DNA of 62,684 nucleotides, filler included, from Basidioascus undulatus (lineage: Eukaryota), in the NCBI GenBank assembly GCA_000826855.1. It is 10 parts of 10 records of this genome, joined end to end, with 100 filler letters (N's around TTAATTAATTAA, not from the genome) between each part and the next. Parts side by side here need not be neighbours in the genome. Positions count along the whole stretch, not along the records: positions 25,291 to 29,378 come from JTLS01002245.1; 9 more parts are not named here. One strand, given 5' to 3'. The position numbers and the translations under genes are program-made. Shown piece by piece: positions 25,191-42,020 of this stretch. Numbering within the stretch: position 1 is the first letter of the stretch; each line of letters begins with the position of its first letter. Under the pieces are notes generated by a model. It ran no database searches. It had not been told where the DNA came from and saw only the letters and a program-made list of their open reading frames with translations.

Positions 25191-25290
25191 NNNNNNNNNN
25201 NNNNNNNNNNNNNNNNNNNNNNNNNNNNNNNNNNTTAATTAATTAANNNNNNNNNNNNNNNNNNNNNNNNNNNNNNNNNNNNNNNNNNNN
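25191..25290. other. Artificial contig linker (N44-TTAATTAATTAA-N44); also at 29379, 33561, 37743, 41921, 46096, 50255, 54379 and 58532
   Basis: Nine matching 100-nt spacers with stop codons in all six frames. Genes are cut at them and do not resume on the other side. Confidence 0.97.
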
Positions 25291-26743: not shown

Positions 26744-27464
26744 TCAGTGGTCCACCTTGTGCGCCTGCTCGAAACGGATGCCGCTGCGGACAAGGGGGAT
26801 AGATGAGGTCAGGGGGGAGACGGGGATCGCACCAGACGAGCATGACCAACCAGTAGCTGTGGGACGCAGCATGAGTCAGCATGCGGACAGACCAGAAATT
26901 GCCGATGGACGTACCCGCAGCTGTGAGGACCGGGCTTGTCGAGCTTGATGAAGATCTTAGGGTGGCCGAGGGGGCCGCCGCCTTCGAGCCCCATCCAAGG
27001 TCAGACCTAGAGTTCCCCGCCCCTTTCCGCAAGCAACACGCCGCGCGCCGCACTCACCACCATCGCAGGAAGCAATCCGACCCTCCACCAGGCGCACCGG
27101 CTCCCTGCGTCCCCCCACCATGCGTGAGCAAGTGTCTCCCTGCTCGTGCGGGCACCACGCCGACTCACTGCGCAATCATCTCGATCGCAGCGAGGGGCTG
27201 GGGCTGGAGGGGCAAGTAGGTCTGCTCGAAGCGCGCGCCGACCATTGCCTGCTCGCGCGGGCGCTGGTGCTCGGACCACTTGGTCGCGCGGTTGGGGGCC
27301 TGGGGCGGGAGCTCGGCGAGCGGCGTCTTGCGCTCCTGGAACTCGACCGGATCGCGGGGCGAGGTGCCCTCGGGGCGGGGCGCGGGGACAGCGGTGTGCT
27401 GCGAGCGCGTGAGGACGCGCAGTGGGGACGGCCGCGGCAGGCGGCGAAGAAGCGTGCTAGACAT
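26744..27464 (-). CDS. NDUFS6: NADH:ubiquinone oxidoreductase zinc-finger subunit (NDUFS6/NUMM), 5 exons
   Basis: Mitochondrial-type presequence, QAPNRATKWSEHQRPREQAMVGARFEQT..QPQPLAAIEMIA, EPVRLVEGRIASCDGGGGPLGHPKIFIKLDKPGPHSCGYCGIRF. Confidence 0.95.
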
Positions 27465-27995
27465 GGCGAGATGATTGAGGTCAACGGCGAGGATGCTCGC
27501 GAGCTCACCGGCGATGGACGCAGGGGAGCGCGGACCTAACCAAAGAGCGTAGGATGAAGTTGGCGGCGAATCGCAGTGGTGTGAATGCACTTTCGTGTAT
27601 AGTGGCACACACCTTCCTCAACTCATCTTTGAAAATACCGAGAATAAAATGTTGTTTGCATTCTCAAGTATGGGGGGGTGGGTCAACGCATAAAGTATGC
27701 CCAACAAGCGCTACGAATGCGATGCAAAGTTCGCTGGCTGTCGAGTCTGCAGCCCCGACACGGTGTGCAATGAATATAGGAAGTCAGAAGCAATCCATTT
27801 ACTGACTTGTTTATAACCAAATATTCTGCTCGAAAGGACCATACAGCTGTGTGGCAGTTCTGAAGACGCAACAACCACTACCAGGCATGGCACTTTCCCC
27901 CTAACACACTCTGTCAACTGCCGCATCAGTGCCAGCAACTATGTGCTTCGTACACTGCCGTGCAACAAGAGTTTCGACAAGAGTGCCGTTCCTAA

Positions 27996-28006
27996 CGGCT
28001 CATTGG
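27996..28006 (+). promoter_or_regulatory. Pol III A-box-like element in the leader of the permuted tRNA
   Basis: CGGCTCATTGG compared with the TRGCnnARYGG consensus, about 30 nt upstream of the B-box (GTTCAATCC, 28037-28045). Confidence 0.55.
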
Positions 28007-28021
28007 TCGTGCGGCAGCGAA

Positions 28022-28101
28022 ATGGTGAGGTCGGTTGTTCAATCCAGCCAGGGGGCACTTGAATTGCCCCTTTAGCTCAGTGGTAGAGCGCGCCACTCGT
28101 A
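28022..28101 (+). tRNA. Circularly permuted tRNA-Thr(CGU): 3' half 28022-28057, 8-nt spacer, 5' half 28066-28101
   Basis: 5' half GCCCCTT TA GCTC AGTGGTA GAGC G CGCCA CT CGT A. 3' half A TGGTG AGGTC GGTTG TTCAATC CAGCC AGGGGGC A. Reordered, they give a 72-nt cloverleaf with all four stems fully paired (Watson-Crick or G:U). Confidence 0.9.
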
Positions 28102-28106
28102 CTGTC

Positions 28107-28111
28107 TTTTT
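28107..28111 (+). terminator. RNA Pol III oligo-T terminator
   Basis: TTTTT begins 6 nt after A37 of the 5' half, and further T-runs follow. Confidence 0.7.
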
Positions 28112-29101
28112 GCTTGTCTGACAGTCTTTTTGTTTCTTTTGCCCCATTGTCTGTTCCAGTGCCTTTTTTTCATGCTCGAGCGTCGGATATGTGTGCTCTG
28201 TTAAAAAAGGTGGGTTGGCCTTCACCAAGATGTGCACAGGAGGCGTGCGGGTGGATCTTGGGTGGATCTGTCCCGTCCAGGGTCGAAGGTAAAGACGGCG
28301 TTGATTGTCGTATGTTACCTATAGCAGGTGGGGCATGGAGGCTCTCATCTTATTCCTCGCACGACGTGCCTAGCAGTCTGCAGAACGTCTGCCAGTGCTC
28401 AATTGATGTCCGCCGAGCTTCTGGGATTCGCGTCCTCACGAATAACTGCCTTGCTTCGGAAACCACTAGTTTTTTGCTGTGTAAACAGGCGGTCTGTTTT
28501 CATTGTGTCAGCACAGGCAGAGAAAGTCGCTGTCATGCCCAAGCCCTGCTTGGGACTCGAGTCTTGGGCGTGAAGAGTACTAGTTTTACGCAGCGGTTCC
28601 GGCTGCTGGCATTACGAAAGAAAGAAAAAGCCTTCCTAGGCGGTTCTTTCTGCGCCCGAGGAGTCTGTTTATGGTTGATGGAAAGCAAGCATTCCAGGGA
28701 TAGGTCCCGCAAGTGCAGACGACATGTCCGCCCGACCCCGGCCCGTCCGCAAGAGCTTCGGTTCTCGTTGTCCTTCCGCAAACAGCCAACCCGTGTCTTA
28801 AACTATCAACAGTTGTTGGTTGATAGCACTCCTCAGCGTATATTGAGTTCGCCTCAGCCGTGCGCAGTCCACGCAGCCTTTGTGGCGCTGATGCATTCGA
28901 GGGGCTGCGTGTCCGCATTCCTTCGCCGTCCCCCTCTTTTGAGCCCCGCTGTCCGTCACGGCCTGGATGAAGAGTGGAGATTTCTCTCGACTCTCCGTCA
29001 ACAGCTCCCAACAGCCACACACATTCGTTCATCACGCTCGCGTTCAATTTACGACGTCCCCGCCTTCGCATTTTTTACGTATTCGAACTCATACCCCTAC
29101 C

Positions 29102-29378: not shown

Positions 29379-31125
29379 NNNNNNNNNNNNNNNNNNNNNN
29401 NNNNNNNNNNNNNNNNNNNNNNTTAATTAATTAANNNNNNNNNNNNNNNNNNNNNNNNNNNNNNNNNNNNNNNNNNNNTTCCCATCTCCTCTTCATCGGA
29501 CTGGCTCCTACGCTCTTTTCGCTCCGTTCACTTTGCGCTCGGCTCGCAATACTTCCTCTTTCTCTTATTTCCGCCCTCTCGACGGCTTCGCTTCCCAAAA
29601 TATTCCGACTCCACATTCGTTCGTCACCATCTTGCCCACCTTGCTGTGTCAGTCTCGGTTCGGCTCGAGCACTGTACACCTGCCACTCACTTGTGATCTT
29701 CGGATCTCACAATGCACCGATTTGAGTGAACGCTTGACGTATTGCTGCTTTGCCAATATCTGCGCTACGAAAGCTGACGAAGTTGAAGCTCCGACAAGCT
29801 GCTGCTCGCTGCCGTCGGTTCAGATTGAAGGGTTCTGGACACGTCGCATCGCTGCAGTTCAGATTGTGGGCCCGAATGGCTCGAATGACCTTTATTCAGA
29901 TTTCTTGATTGGTGCAGGCAAATCGTACTGTACAATTTGAGGTGTCGGAGGTGCTGCGTCGACTAGAGAAGAGCACTTGTTTGCCCGCGTGAGCCATAAG
30001 ACGCGTAGAACTTCTACAGCCCTGAAGGAACAGCTTTGAGCCTGGGCAAATTTACATCCTTTTATGCTATTTGCAAGTGCTAGACCCTGTGCAAGTCCAT
30101 TCATGCGAGCCAAAGCGTGCAGGCAGGCAAGCTAGCTAGCCCCCGCGACAGTGCACATGGAAGACTAGACTCGAGCCCCTCGTCCTCGTAGAGCCAACTT
30201 ATCGAGTTTGAGATCGTCCTTTACCGGCGCGCTTCCTCCCCCTAAGTACTTACAATGCATCTTTCAGGTCGATACCGCCGATGGAGAAAGCTCACAGTCC
30301 GGCGTCATGGTGAGACTGCCACCCCGGCGCCTGTGTGATGTTCGCTGCATTTGCTCCGTTGGGTAAGCATAAGACTTCAGGCCTCTAATTTTTTTCTGAT
30401 ATAATGCTCATAAATCATGAATCTGGACGATGAGAAAGAGAAAGCATTGACGGTCTGTCAACCCGGCTTTTGCAGTCCTCATACGGCAGCGCTTGCATGC
30501 CTTTGTCGAGTGTCTACGTGAATTCGCCCCCAGAGTGAAATTAATAGGACTTTATAGCTCATAAGAAGGCCTGTATGAGCTCAAGGGAGAAGTGCGTCAG
30601 TCTCCACAGCGCAACGGCGAAGACTGCACACGACGAGCCCTTTCGCAACTGCAACCACGTGGATCTGGAACGTCTCGGTTTGCCCAGGCAATATGCAGCC
30701 CACGTATACCAAGAGGCTCTAGTTGTGGGAGGGAGCTTATGTCCACTTCACTAGTTTGCAGAGGCCTCTCGCAACGTTCGTGTTCCGAGTCAGAAGGCGG
30801 AGAGGATGCGTGGGGCTTATGATACTGCAGCTGCGCAGATGAACACAGACCATTTAGGTTCACGCTATATACGATGCTTGTAGGAGGGATCAATGTCGCT
30901 ATTGCCGCGTCGTCACAGTCGCACAGACGCTGTGTTTAGAGCGAAGTCCTCCGGGGTGCAGTTTGGCGCTCCGTCTCCGCGTGTGCAACTCTGTTCGCGC
31001 CTCGCTCTTACGGCCTAGCCCTTGCTGCCCGCTGTGAAGTGCGAAGCAAGCGACGCACTCTCTGTCCTGTTCCACCACGACCTTATCCCAACCTCTCAAC
31101 GTCAGCATATACGGCGCCGACGGGG

Positions 31126-38703: not shown

Positions 38704-38987
38704 GGCGGTGAGGGGTATGGGATAGGGCGCGGTTTGGAGGGTATATGGTGGGTTTGGATTGGTATAAATATTGGTACGATGCGAAGAGGTCGAGTCACAA
38801 TCAGAGTTACAATCCATGGGCAGTATCGCGACAGCCAGAGTGTGGGGACCAGCCCGGTTCCTGTCGGCTTTAGAGTGTTCTCAGAACCCCCGCTAGACAC
38901 CGGCCTTCTCCCAGCCGTGCCTTCTCGCTTCGCCCTCCTGCCTCCAAACCGTCTTCCATCCACCGTCATCTCCCTCTCGATCTTACA

Positions 38988-41920
38988 ATGCTCCTCCTCC
39001 GCGCCCGACATCCACCCCTCCCCTCCCTACGCCTACCTCTCTCCCGCCTCGCTAGCACCTCCTCCCGACCGCCGAACCCGTACTCCTCCACCCTCCTCCT
39101 CCCCAAGACGCAGTTCCCCCTCCGCGCAGATGCCGCAAAGCGCGAGCACCTCTTCCGGCCGCGCACCACCGCGGCGCTGTACCGGTGGCAGCGGGAGCAT
39201 CTGGACACGGGGGAGGGGGAGGAGTGGATCTTTCATGATGGGCCGCCGTACGCGAACGGGCGGCTGCACATGGGCCATGCGCTCAATAAGGTCCTTAAGG
39301 ACATGATCAACCGCTACCGGGTCCTTTCAGGACAACGGGTGCAGTGCGTCCTCTCCCCTTCTCCTCCCCCCTCCTCCTTTTACCTACTCACCTGCATCCC
39401 CAAGCTACGTCCCCGGCTGGGACACGCACGGCCTCCCGATCGAGCAGAAGGCCCTGGCGGAGCTGCGCGCGGACCACCGTGCGCTCTCCCCCGTCGCTGT
39501 GCGCGAGGCCGCAAAGCGCACCGCGCTAGACGCGATCGAGATGCAGAAGGACGAGTTTGAGGCGCTCGGGCTCATGGCGGACCTCAGGGACGAAAGGGCT
39601 ACGTATCGGACGCTAGGTGGGTGGGCGGCGGCGAGTGGGGATGTAGAATTAGAGAGAGAGGCTCATGCATTGGTTCTTTTCCGTCCGCCTGCTGGTGCTG
39701 TGTTGCTGTAGACCACGAGTACGAGATGCGCCAGCTCGAGCTGTTCCGGTCGATGGTCGCGAAGGGTCAGCTGCTCTCCTTTCCTGCCCTTCCCCACCTT
39801 CTCCCCATCTCACCCTCTTTCGACCAGGCCTGGTACACCGCGCGCACCGCCCCGTTTACTGGTCGCCCTCCTCGCGCACTGCCCTGGCCGAAGCCGAGCT
39901 GGAGTACGCCGACGCGCACGTCTCGCAGTCCGTCTACGTCCGCTTCCCGGCCGTCTTTGAGGGCGAGGGCGTCGGCCTCGTGTGCTGGACTACGACGCCG
40001 TGGAGTTTGGTGGGGAACATGGTGCGTGGTCCGTCCCCTTCCTCCCTTAGGGCGTTGCTGACAGTGCGCGGGGGACAGGCAATCAGCGTGAACCCCGACC
40101 TGGAGTACTCCCTCGTCCAACGCGAAGCAGACGGGGACGCCCTCATCCTCGCGTCCGAGCGTGTCTCCGCGCTCGAGTCCCTCCTCGGCCCGCTCACAGT
40201 CCAGCGCACCTTCCCCGGCTCCGCCCTCCTCTCAGTGCGGTACACCCCGCCCTTCCACCAATACACGCTCGGCGCGCCGGCCCCCTCCTATCCCATCCTC
40301 TCTGCCCAACACGTAACCTCCACGAGCGGCACGGGACTCGTGCACACCGCCCCTGCGCACGGGAACGAGGACTACCTCGCCTACCGGTCGTACCTCTCTT
40401 CTCTCCCCGCCTCCTCTTCCCCCCCCACCACCACTACCTCCTCCGCCATTGGTGAGGACCTCCTCTCCCCAGTCGACGTGGACGGTCGCTTCGCCTCCGA
40501 GGCTGTGCGCAAAATCTGCGGGCGCACGGACGGGACGCGCCTGGACGGCCTTGAGTGCCTGGGCGAGGGCGCCAGGGAGGTGGTCCGCCTGCTCCGGGAG
40601 CGGGAGGCTCAGGAGAGGGGGAGGAAGTGGGTCCTGGCGGAGGAGCGCGTCGAGCACCGCTACCCGTACGATTGGCGGACGAAGAAGCCGGTGCTGATTC
40701 GGTGAGTTGGGCGGATGTGTGTGGGTGATCGGAGACGGGGCTGACTGGGGCGTGGTGAGAGGGTAGGGCCACTTCCCAGTGGTTCGCGAATGTCGACGAG
40801 CTCAAGCAGACTGCGATCGACGCGCTAGAGGGGGTGCAGTTCATCCCCCCGCTCGGGCAGAACCGGCTTTCCTCCTTCGTCTCTTCCCGCTCGGAGTGGT
40901 GCATCTCGCGCCAACGCGCCTGGGGCGTGCCGATCCCGATCCTCTTCCACACCCCCTCCTCCACGCCCGTCCTCGACCCCTCCGTCCTCGCACACACGCT
41001 GAGCGTCCTCAACGCGCACGGCACGTCCGCGTGGTTTGCCCTCCCCGCATCCACGTTCCTCCCGCCCGCGCTCGCGAAGAGGGCGGACGAGTACGAGAAG
41101 GGCACCGACACGATGGACGTGTGGTTCGACTCAGGGACGAGCTGGACGGGCCTCCCCGGCGCGAGGGAGGGGAGGAAGGCGGATGTGTATCTGGAGGGCA
41201 GCGACCAGCACAGGGGGTGGTTCCAGAGCAGTTTGCTCACGAGCGTTGCCCAGCGAGGGGACGCACCGTATCGGAGGTGTATTACTCATGGGATGGTCGT
41301 GGATGAGAGGGGTATGAAGATGAGCAAGAGCTTGGGGAACGGCATCAGCCCGATGGACATCATTAAGGGCGGGAAGGTGCGCTCCTTCCTTCATTCCATT
41401 CCCTCCTTCCTCTCTTCGCCTATCCCCTTGGCAGCTAAAGCTCAACTTCATGATCCCCAAACAGGACCCCCAAAAGCTCCCCCCCTACGGCGCCGACGTC
41501 CTTCGCTACTGGGCCGCCTCAGTGGAGTACGCGCGCGACGTCCCCATCGGGCCCACAGTCATCGCGCACGCGTCCGAGGCGCTCCGCAAGATCCGCAACT
41601 CCGCGCGCTTCATCCTCGGCAACGTGCGCGCCGCCGGGCTCGACGCGCTGGTGCAAAGGGAGGATATGGAGGTGGTGAGGGGGCTTGCTGCTGCGCGAGA
41701 AGAAGAACAGAAGGGACTGATTGGGTTGGATGGGCACGGCGCGCAGATAGAGAAGTGGGTGATGCACGAGCTGGCGGTGCTGGAGGAGCGGTGCAGGGAG
41801 GGGTACGAGGCATTCGCGTTCAACCGGGGTGCGTTTCGTCTTCTTTCTTTCTCTCCCTCCCGATCTAGTACGCTGAATGAACCCGCGGGTCTCGCTGGCG
41901 CTCGACAGTCACCCAAGCGC
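38988..41920 (+). CDS. ISM1: Mitochondrial isoleucyl-tRNA synthetase (truncated)
   Basis: Presequence, HDGPPYANGRLHMGHALNK, VPGWDTHGLPIE, WTTTPW, GTGLVHTAPAHG, WCISRQRAWGVPIP, YLEGSDQHRGWFQS, KMSKS. Confidence 0.96.
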
Positions 41921-42020
41921 NNNNNNNNNNNNNNNNNNNNNNNNNNNNNNNNNNNNNNNNNNNNTTAATTAATTAANNNNNNNNNNNNNNNNNNNNNNNN
42001 NNNNNNNNNNNNNNNNNNNN

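Follow-up and report, generated by a model that had tools for sequence, protein, structure and literature searches.

A probable small family of circularly permuted tRNA-Thr(CGU) genes in a basidiomycete fungus

Can a fungus make a transfer RNA (tRNA) from a gene whose two halves stand in the reverse of their usual order? Until now, permuted tRNA genes have passed for a peculiarity of one archaeon and a small number of unicellular algae. The question is raised here by a short element in a 62,684-nucleotide (nt) stretch of DNA from Basidioascus undulatus (assembly GCA_000826855.1), the whole of which was analysed and is called the window below. In this element, the 3' half of a threonine tRNA with the anticodon CGU lies upstream of the corresponding 5' half, with a short spacer between the two (Table 1). 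We read the element as one member of a working small family of type II circularly permuted tRNA-Thr(CGU) genes in a basidiomycete fungus, type II denoting a junction between tRNA positions 37 and 38, and we give this reading a probability of roughly 0.7. What speaks for it is the layout of the locus, an intact cloverleaf, a terminator run, a conserved core that is present in several copies with unrelated flanks, the fungal context, and the heavy use of the codon ACG.

Table 1. Features of the permuted tRNA-Thr(CGU) locus and of its surroundings in the window
Feature	Position	Length	Strand	Description	Basis
tRNA-Thr(CGU) 3' half, positions 38-73	28022..28057	36 nt	+	anticodon-stem 3' strand, variable loop, T arm (B box), acceptor 3' strand, discriminator A73	sequence reading, ARAGORN on rejoined halves
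Spacer CTTGAATT	28058..28065	8 nt	+	links A73 to G1	sequence reading
tRNA-Thr(CGU) 5' half, positions 1-37	28066..28101	36 nt	+	acceptor 5' strand, D arm (A box), anticodon-stem 5' strand, C32 U33 C34 G35 U36 A37	sequence reading, ARAGORN on rejoined halves
Leader GGCAGCGAA	28013..28021		+	equivalent of an intron 3' end; GGCAG, able to pair with the trailer, then CGAA	
Trailer CTGTC	28102..28106		+	equivalent of an intron 5' end; complement of 28013-28017	RNAfold
T5 run	28107..28111		+	presumed RNA polymerase III terminator	
D-arm-like stretch	27998..28013		+	candidate pseudo-A box; 13/16 identical to tRNA positions 10-25	
NDUFS6-type (zf-CHCC) protein exon	27168..27617		-	best matches are Atractiella rhizophila and Sporobolomyces blumeae proteins with PF10276	

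When the two pieces are rejoined by script, 5' half first, ARAGORN calls a single 72-nt tRNA-Thr(cgt) with an acceptor stem of 7 base pairs (bp), a D stem of 4 bp, and anticodon and T stems of 5 bp each. The junction falls exactly between positions 37 and 38, the 5' half ending with the loop residues C32 to A37 and the 3' half beginning with A38. By the general rules of tRNA sequence, U8, A14, G18 and G19, A21, G26, U33, A37 and C48 are in place in the rejoined molecule, as are T54, T55, C56, A58 and the G53-C61 pair, and C32, G35, U36 and A37 fit a threonine tRNA. In its native order, the locus DNA gives no tRNA gene with ARAGORN, which finds 0 tRNA genes over the whole window of 62.7 kb, and Rfam at its gathering thresholds likewise gives 0 matches in the window. 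Each half is found once in the window when up to 3 mismatches are allowed (0 of 100 shuffles match); the 62.7 kb contain neither another 5' half upstream nor another 3' half downstream, so the locus is not part of a tandem pair of genes. The original prediction, made from the same DNA, had described the two halves and their spacer, a complete cloverleaf broken at the canonical intron site 37/38, a T5 run after the 5' half with no 3' half downstream of it, and a gene that standard tRNA scans would miss. All of this is borne out by the call on the rejoined halves, the half-sequence search and the empty scans. The distance of more than 1 kb to either contig end that it gave also agrees with the nearest N runs, at 25247-25290 and 29379-29422.

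A permutation-aware scan served as control, in which window segments from every 10th position (100, 130 or 170 nt long) were self-duplicated and passed to ARAGORN with introns allowed. All 25 scoring segments (6, 7 and 12 for the three lengths) start within 27921-28031 and cover the locus, and nothing outside the locus scored in the window. Four of the 25 are labelled Thr(cgt); the others received different labels, with ARAGORN placing the artificial intron differently. The arrangement is that of a type II gene, with the 3' half before the 5' half on the same strand and a short spacer of 8 nt, known cases having 1-74 bp. In an ordinary intron-containing tRNA gene the 5' exon precedes the 3' exon, and here the halves are in the reverse order. 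Nor does the element resemble a tRNA-derived short interspersed nuclear element (SINE): its B box comes before its A box, and its copies have no SINE body, since they stop matching the window within 28003-28013 on one side and 28101-28117 on the other.

Whether this order exists in the genome, and how often, can be followed in contigs built from sequencing reads. Three DNA-type runs from two studies cover the stretch, and two of them, X1 (2025) and X2 (2014), cover nearly all of it; single-copy depth is ~42-47 in X1 and ~17 in X2. Only sequences at least ~90% like the halves are detectable in this comparison, and the results on copies and loose ends rest on the contig pieces and loose-end rows listed. 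In X1, a 2708-nt contig that starts on the side of the NDUFS6-type gene enters the 3' half and reaches 28041, another of 20.4 kb takes up at 28088 and continues downstream, and two 60-nt unitigs, one of them with one differing letter, bridge 28029-28088 across the spacer at depths of 53.7 and 48.9, against ~47 for a single copy. The pieces that support the order (27300-28041, 28029-28088 and 28088-28800) are all present in X1, and the outer two also in X2. Reads thus carry the order of 3' half, spacer and 5' half, apparently at two loci. The read check of the order that had been proposed with the prediction comes out in its favor, the halves being bridged at single-copy depth.

The halves themselves are repeated. 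In X1, a 40-nt unitig over the 3' half (28018-28057) has a depth of 302, ~6 times the single-copy value, and a unitig over the spacer and 5' half (28059-28099) has a depth of 175, ~4 times that value; in X2, the depths are 45 over 28006-28041 and 57 over 28076-28114. The contigs that lie on the 1.5-kb stretch number 38 in X1 and 27 in X2, of which 13 and 11, respectively, continue into DNA unlike the window. Contigs of 27.8 kb and 977 nt from other loci terminate in the leader and 3' half, and contigs of ~16 kb (in both runs), 3.5 kb and 1.27 kb from other loci start in the 5' half and trailer. A repeated half inside a contig would break it; therefore, these contigs hold no partner half where an ordinary gene has one. 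At these other loci, the 0.9-27.7 kb upstream of the 3' half are free of a 5' half and the 1.2-16 kb downstream of the 5' half are free of a 3' half, so that none of them can be an ordinary intron-containing gene.

The boundaries of the repeated unit are narrow. Among the loose ends listed, the match to the window begins at 28003, 28009 or 28013 and ends after 28101, 28105, 28106, 28114 or 28117. The flanks of the copies diverge just outside 28003-28117 and are unrelated between loci. In three loose ends the match to the window stops at 28101-28106, and in each of these a separate T-run follows within ~10 nt. Among the pieces listed, the contig tables of either run contain no variant letters, indels or joints, and the junction expected of a gene in normal order (28101 to 28022) is not reported in X1 or X2. 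The general picture is of a family of several copies whose core is conserved and whose flanks are unrelated, and this speaks more for a working gene than for a single relic.

The identity of the halves is supported from outside the window as well. The reverse strand of the element is an open frame, and its translation was searched in two protein libraries. It matched only P0125 and P0126, in which the gene order is the normal one, and an unrelated repeat protein, P0127; neither library gave a permuted copy. P0125 and P0126 are AT-rich open reading frames (ORFs) of ENA assemblies from other organisms and are reverse-strand read-throughs of ordinary tRNA-Thr genes, in which the 3'-half peptide precedes the 5'-half peptide, as ordinary gene order requires on the reverse strand. 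Peptide identity with them is exact over 14 or 12 residues and over 9 residues, and, if the codons are taken to be the same, the halves are calculated to lie 13 and 10 nt apart at 37/38. This shows both halves to be those of a conserved eukaryotic threonine tRNA, consistent with CGU, and the ordinary versions of the gene to carry a short canonical intron. The positions of the leader and trailer match those short 37/38 introns, which supports an origin of the permuted unit by tandem duplication of an intron-containing gene.

A decoder with this anticodon would have work to do in the host. In 739 codons of Pfam-aligned exons, where the G+C content at third codon positions is 0.83, ACG is the commonest threonine codon (16 of 37), and a CGU decoder is therefore in demand. 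On its best protein matches, the window is from a basidiomycete-like fungus that has no close relative in the protein library searched. The NDUFS6-type exon lies ~400 nt from the element, and a 369-amino-acid open stretch at 40759-41868 is a piece of a class I tRNA synthetase; it is matched best by the isoleucyl-tRNA synthetases of Wallemia (65% and 64% identity), followed by those of Agaricomycetes (~60%). These matches of the neighboring genes to Wallemia, Atractiella and Sporobolomyces are the reason for placing the host among the fungi, and they sustain the earlier placement of the locus in a fungal genome beside NDUFS6.

The folding of the locus is compatible with its reading as a permuted tRNA. 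The minimum-energy structure of 27995-28112 given by RNAfold is the permuted cloverleaf, with the acceptor stem closed by the spacer. In this model the anticodon stem is lengthened by a 3-bp helix between CGA of the leader (28018-28020) and U33-G35, U36 and A37 form a 2-nt bulge, and a 5-bp helix pairs 28013-28017 with 28102-28106. From the outside inwards, the termini fold as a 5-bp helix, a 2-nt bulge, a 3-bp helix and an internal loop, followed by the anticodon stem. As modeled, the leader/trailer fold is like a bulge-helix-bulge (BHB) motif but relaxed. The pairing was dropped as evidence for a BHB because the helix at this locus is no better than chance.

As regards the end of transcription, there is no run of four or more T in 28022-28101, hence no T-run in the spacer. 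A motif, GTCTTTTTG, is present at 28104-28112 and again 20 nt further on, at 28124-28132, so that one T5 run follows another; the second copy may be a back-up terminator or a small duplication. Further T-runs lie past the locus, a T4 at 28137-28140 and a T7 at 28164-28170.

If the element is a working gene, its expression could proceed as follows. RNA polymerase III would transcribe one RNA of ~100 nt or more that comprises the leader, positions 38-73, the spacer, positions 1-37 and the trailer, and that ends in the T5 run. The transcript would fold into the tRNA body, with the spacer closing the acceptor stem and with the leader/trailer pairing, if any, extending the anticodon stem. Eukaryotic splicing endonucleases need a pair between anticodon loop and intron and locate the 5' cut by its distance from the mature domain. 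Here the endonuclease would cleave after A37 and before A38, with the mature domain and a C32:G(-3) pair to position it; on reading the sequence, the G at -3 from the 3' cut (28019) is able to pair with C32, leaving a 3-nt bulge at the cut. tRNA ligase would seal A37 to A38, RNase P and RNase Z would excise the spacer, and CCA would be added. The order of these steps may vary. Cutting and ligation first would give a circular intermediate, as in Cyanidioschyzon, and excision of the spacer first would give a two-piece precursor held together by its stems. The two-piece precursor is plausible if splicing is cytoplasmic, as in budding yeast, and the choice between the two would depend on where the enzymes are located in this fungus.

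Several results weigh against the reading of the element as a working permuted gene. Initiation is the weakest step of the proposed route, because the B box stands ahead of the A box, an order at odds with ordinary TFIIIC-directed initiation, and because no TATA-like or AT-rich element is visible on reading 27940-28012, ~70 nt upstream. An upstream promoter of this kind is a frequent trait at known permuted genes, not a defining one. The candidate pseudo-A box, ~39 nt upstream of the B box, is a weak match: in local alignment of the 5' half with the upstream DNA, 58 of 2000 shuffles score at least equally. A control alignment of the 5' half with the downstream DNA (111 of 2000 shuffles) shows how little such scores mean. 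Moreover, at least three other copies diverge inside or downstream of 27998-28013 and are therefore without the D-arm-like stretch. The 118-nt fold of 27995-28112 has a z score of -0.96, with 33 of 200 shuffles folding equally well. Among 5000 shuffled leaders, 1202 pair at least as strongly as the leader/trailer duplex of -8.0 kcal/mol, and so do 923 of 8808 genomic 14-mers. X1 and X2 are both possible sources of the window DNA and so are not independent of it, although their contigs are built from reads. No second organism with this layout was found among the metagenome matches listed or in the two protein libraries. Finally, transcription, the joined A37-A38 form, aminoacylation, the promoter and the processing route are all matters that we infer. 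As an observation on the upstream flank, there is a perfect hairpin at 27985-27999 (6 bp with a 3-nt loop, GCCGTT CCT AACGGC), 14 nt upstream of the leader and overlapping the start of the D-arm-like stretch. In the read contigs, one other copy likewise has a short inverted repeat in its upstream flank.

Among the alternatives, the one that survives best, although we consider it unlikely, is that the element is a dead repeated relic. A tandem-duplicated, intron-containing Thr(CGU) gene would have lost its outer halves, and a remnant of ~100 nt would have been copied by segmental duplication or by an unrecognised short mobile element. No tRNA would be made from it, and ordinary Thr(CGU) or Thr(UGU) genes would read ACG. 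Relatives with ordinary intron-containing genes exist and could supply the raw material for such a rearrangement, and some copies share flank to 28003 and 28117, as recent duplicates would. A relic would also accord with the lack of a promoter recognisable on sequence reading, with a leader/trailer helix no better than chance and with the fact that RNA expression is something we infer. The lost outer 3' half was sought by local alignment in the downstream DNA, where nothing was found (1167 of 2000 shuffles score equally). On the other hand, the cloverleaf that ARAGORN gives for the rejoined halves is flawless, and no variant letters are listed in the core although the flanks are unrelated. The repeated unit ends within ~10-16 nt of the tRNA halves, and each of the three copies whose match to the window stops earliest beyond the 5' half (28101-28106) has a T-run of its own. 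The normal-order junction, too, is missing from the pieces listed for both runs.

It is less probable still that the element encodes a tRNA-like non-coding RNA, a fungal counterpart of bacterial YrlA/Y RNA, that is, a protein-binding polymerase III transcript that is never cut and rejoined. YrlA (RF02553) has the same order of T arm, closed acceptor-like stem and D arm, and it is the best Rfam match of the region (28016-28117), which counts against our reading. At 18.8 bits, with E = 0.18, the match does not reach the gathering score of 69 bits. Y RNAs are ~100 nt long, with paired ends and a U-run, and the RNA expected here would share these traits, including paired 5' and 3' ends. YrlA, however, is without an anticodon loop and binds Ro60, whereas the ends of the element together make up a complete anticodon loop of 7 nt (U33, CGU, A37) that matches the Thr-type acceptor; a mimic needs none of this. 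The halves are also residue for residue those of ordinary Thr(CGU) genes elsewhere, and the element is multi-copy. The 123 ORFs of the window (at least 140 amino acids, E <= 1e-5) contain no Ro60/TROVE match, although short exons could escape such a search.

A third possibility, of slightly lower probability again, is that the downstream part alone is expressed, the A box directing a start in or near the spacer and yielding a ~45-nt RNA like a 5' tRNA half, with the 3' half as a passenger. In ordinary tRNA genes, initiation occurs ~10-20 nt upstream of the A box, a distance that would put the start near 28055-28061, and the T5 run directly after the 5' half would end such a transcript. Without a downstream B box, however, TFIIIC binding would be weak. 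The conservation of the 3' half and leader alongside the 5' half across the copies, bridged by the two unitigs, would be left unexplained. Lastly, an assembly artefact, in which a pair of ordinary tRNA genes was collapsed or mis-joined, is very improbable: the assembly graph is indeed broken at the element, which is a repeat, and assemblers err at repeats, but the junctions stand in k-mer-level contigs built from reads rather than in scaffolding, no joints, indels or other letters are listed, and 27300-28041, 28029-28088 and 28088-28800 link the unique upstream gene, both halves and the unique downstream DNA.

If the element belongs to a working family of permuted genes, a stronger version of the claim is that all Thr(CGU) genes of this basidiomycete are circularly permuted and that the permuted unit itself has been multiplied. 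We regard this as a little better than an even bet; against it counts that an ordinary Thr(CGU) gene less than ~90% like the halves would escape the contig comparison. Were it so, a fungus with yeast-type machinery, meaning TFIIIC-dependent polymerase III, a heterotetrameric splicing endonuclease and a Trl1-type ligase, would rely on a permuted tRNA for its major threonine decoder. Polymerase III would then have to start upstream of a B box that precedes the A box, maturation might use a two-piece precursor rather than a circle, and Opisthokonta would have its first family of permuted tRNA genes. More generally, a working permuted gene in this fungus would mean that the standard eukaryotic splicing machinery suffices for such genes and that the layout exists in a lineage close to the best models of tRNA processing. 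The use of an inverted-box promoter, the order of end-processing and splicing, and the nuclear export of such precursors would become open to experiment. tRNA inventories made with standard scanners can silently miss an essential isoacceptor, ARAGORN and Rfam both missing this locus.

Relatives of the element were also sought in metagenomes. A scan with the acceptor, T loop and D arm of the locus itself and a spacer of 1-31 nt gave 0 matches. A wider pattern (any acceptor starting with GC, same D arm) gave at least 120 loci with at least 122 matches, 29 of which have 7 of 7 acceptor pairs. Among these 29 full-acceptor matches as listed, ARAGORN calls tRNAs on both sides of 5, on one side of 6 and on neither side of 18; the 5 are tandem genes, or a repeat array read as genes with long introns. 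None of 25 re-examined matches, among those listed for the wider pattern, is Thr(CGU) after self-duplication, and BLAST of the element against the 120 listed loci returns only the D-arm words that the pattern imposes. The two best loci, L029 and L113, were rejected as tRNA-Gly/tRNA-Thr(GGU) tandems. In 20 metagenome loci, Rfam finds only ordinary neighboring tRNAs, with no YrlA at the gathering score.

Two groups of these metagenome loci are of interest in themselves. One lies on low-GC contigs (0.30-0.48; L008, L043, L054, L080, L104, L111, L118, L119 and L019) and has the appearance of type II permuted tRNA genes, with a 3' half, a spacer of 6-28 nt and a 5' half that ends in the anticodon loop, mostly followed by a T-run. 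Most read as Cys(GCA) after self-duplication, Rfam finds no tRNA at the 5 of 5 loci tested, and the loci are probably algal. L118 has two units 328 nt apart, for which the ARAGORN alternative is genes with introns of more than 230 nt. The other group, on contigs with a GC content of 0.49-0.57 (L001, L007, L021, L025, L030, L055, L056, L058, L061, L074 and L116), has a T arm, a closed acceptor hairpin and a D arm, with a 5' piece that lacks an anticodon loop. Ordinary tRNA genes are nearby in 6 of these 11 loci. Their topology is that of YrlA-like RNAs or phage tRNA mimics, none reaching the YrlA gathering score.

Other features of the window bear less on the element. Its GC content ranges along its length from 49 to 71%. 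A Pfam search of the 123 stop-to-stop ORFs of at least 140 amino acids (E <= 1e-5) matched 6 ORFs to a family, namely class I tRNA synthetase pieces (four, counted among them), AP_endonuc_2, Ribosomal_S10 and SARAF, and these matches are uninformative about the element. A mitochondrial-type isoleucyl-tRNA synthetase gene lies in at least three open stretches (38874-39557, 39653-40702 and 40759-41865), a split that implies introns; an N-run pair at 41921 follows this gene. Nine pairs of 44-N runs lie in 25191-58631 of the window, the two runs of a pair being 12 nt apart. The pairs recur every 4.1-4.2 kb from 25191 on, with none earlier, and resemble a masking or scaffolding artefact rather than real gaps. 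The 20.4-kb read contig that runs from 28088 would, by its length, reach beyond the pair at 29379-29478.

How the element stands to known permuted genes can be judged from the available passages of the literature. According to those of a review from 2014 (PMC3978253), 34 permuted tRNA genes are known, in unicellular algae and archaea, with intervening sequences of 1-74 bp, a T-stretch downstream and TATA-like elements upstream; type II, with the 37/38 junction, is the usual type in green algae. A 2026 review of the tRNA genes of photosynthetic organisms, in the passages available, places permuted genes in archaea and algae only (PMC13578239), and those of the tRNAscan-SE 2.0 paper treat permuted tRNAs for archaea only (PMC8450103). 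Full-text literature searches, mostly at the level of abstracts and with subscription-only papers outside their scope, found no fungal permuted tRNA, in line with the original prediction, which had known of no fungal example. Within that scope, the element is apparently the first type II circularly permuted tRNA gene to be found in a fungus.

The nearest known sequences are the ordinary Thr(CGU) genes represented by P0125 and P0126. Their exons are nearly the same as those of the element, with the identical reverse-strand peptides of 9 and 12-14 residues, and they are interrupted at the same site, 37/38. In these genes, the 5' exon leads and is separated from the 3' exon by 10-13 nt, whereas in the element the order is swapped and the 'intron' is divided into a leader and a trailer, the trailer ending in a terminator. 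The tRNA-iMet and tRNA-Tyr genes of Thermofilum pendens (Chan, Cozen and Lowe, 2011, as cited in the available text of PMC3978253 and PMC8450103) are likewise permuted and have a very short spacer. They differ in being archaeal, in having their junction at 59/60 in the T loop, and in depending strictly on BHB recognition.

In Cyanidioschyzon merolae (Soma et al., 2007; PMC3978253, available passages), the maturation logic is the one proposed here for the fungal gene: an endonuclease cuts the termini, ligation follows, and RNase P and RNase Z then open the intervening sequence. Type II accounts for 6 of its 11 permuted genes. Unlike the fungal gene, those of C. merolae can also be broken within the D loop, the T stem or the T loop; their BHB motifs are clear, and TATA-like elements lie upstream of them. 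The alga is without the box-binding subunits of TFIIIC, and its circular intermediates have been shown experimentally, whereas the fungal gene is known from DNA. The closest parallels in layout are the type II genes of Mamiellophyceae (Ostreococcus and Micromonas) and of the Bigelowiella natans nucleomorph (Maruyama et al., 2010, through the available text of PMC3978253). In contrast to these genes, the fungal one has a host in Opisthokonta, a GC-rich upstream region without an AT-rich or TATA-like stretch, and the form of a multi-copy family for one isoacceptor, seen here in DNA alone. The algal and fungal genes are alike in the order of the halves and their common strand, in the 37/38 junction, in the short spacer, in the T-stretch after the 5' half, and perhaps in having only a relaxed helix-bulge motif, of a kind acceptable to the eukaryotic splicing endonuclease.

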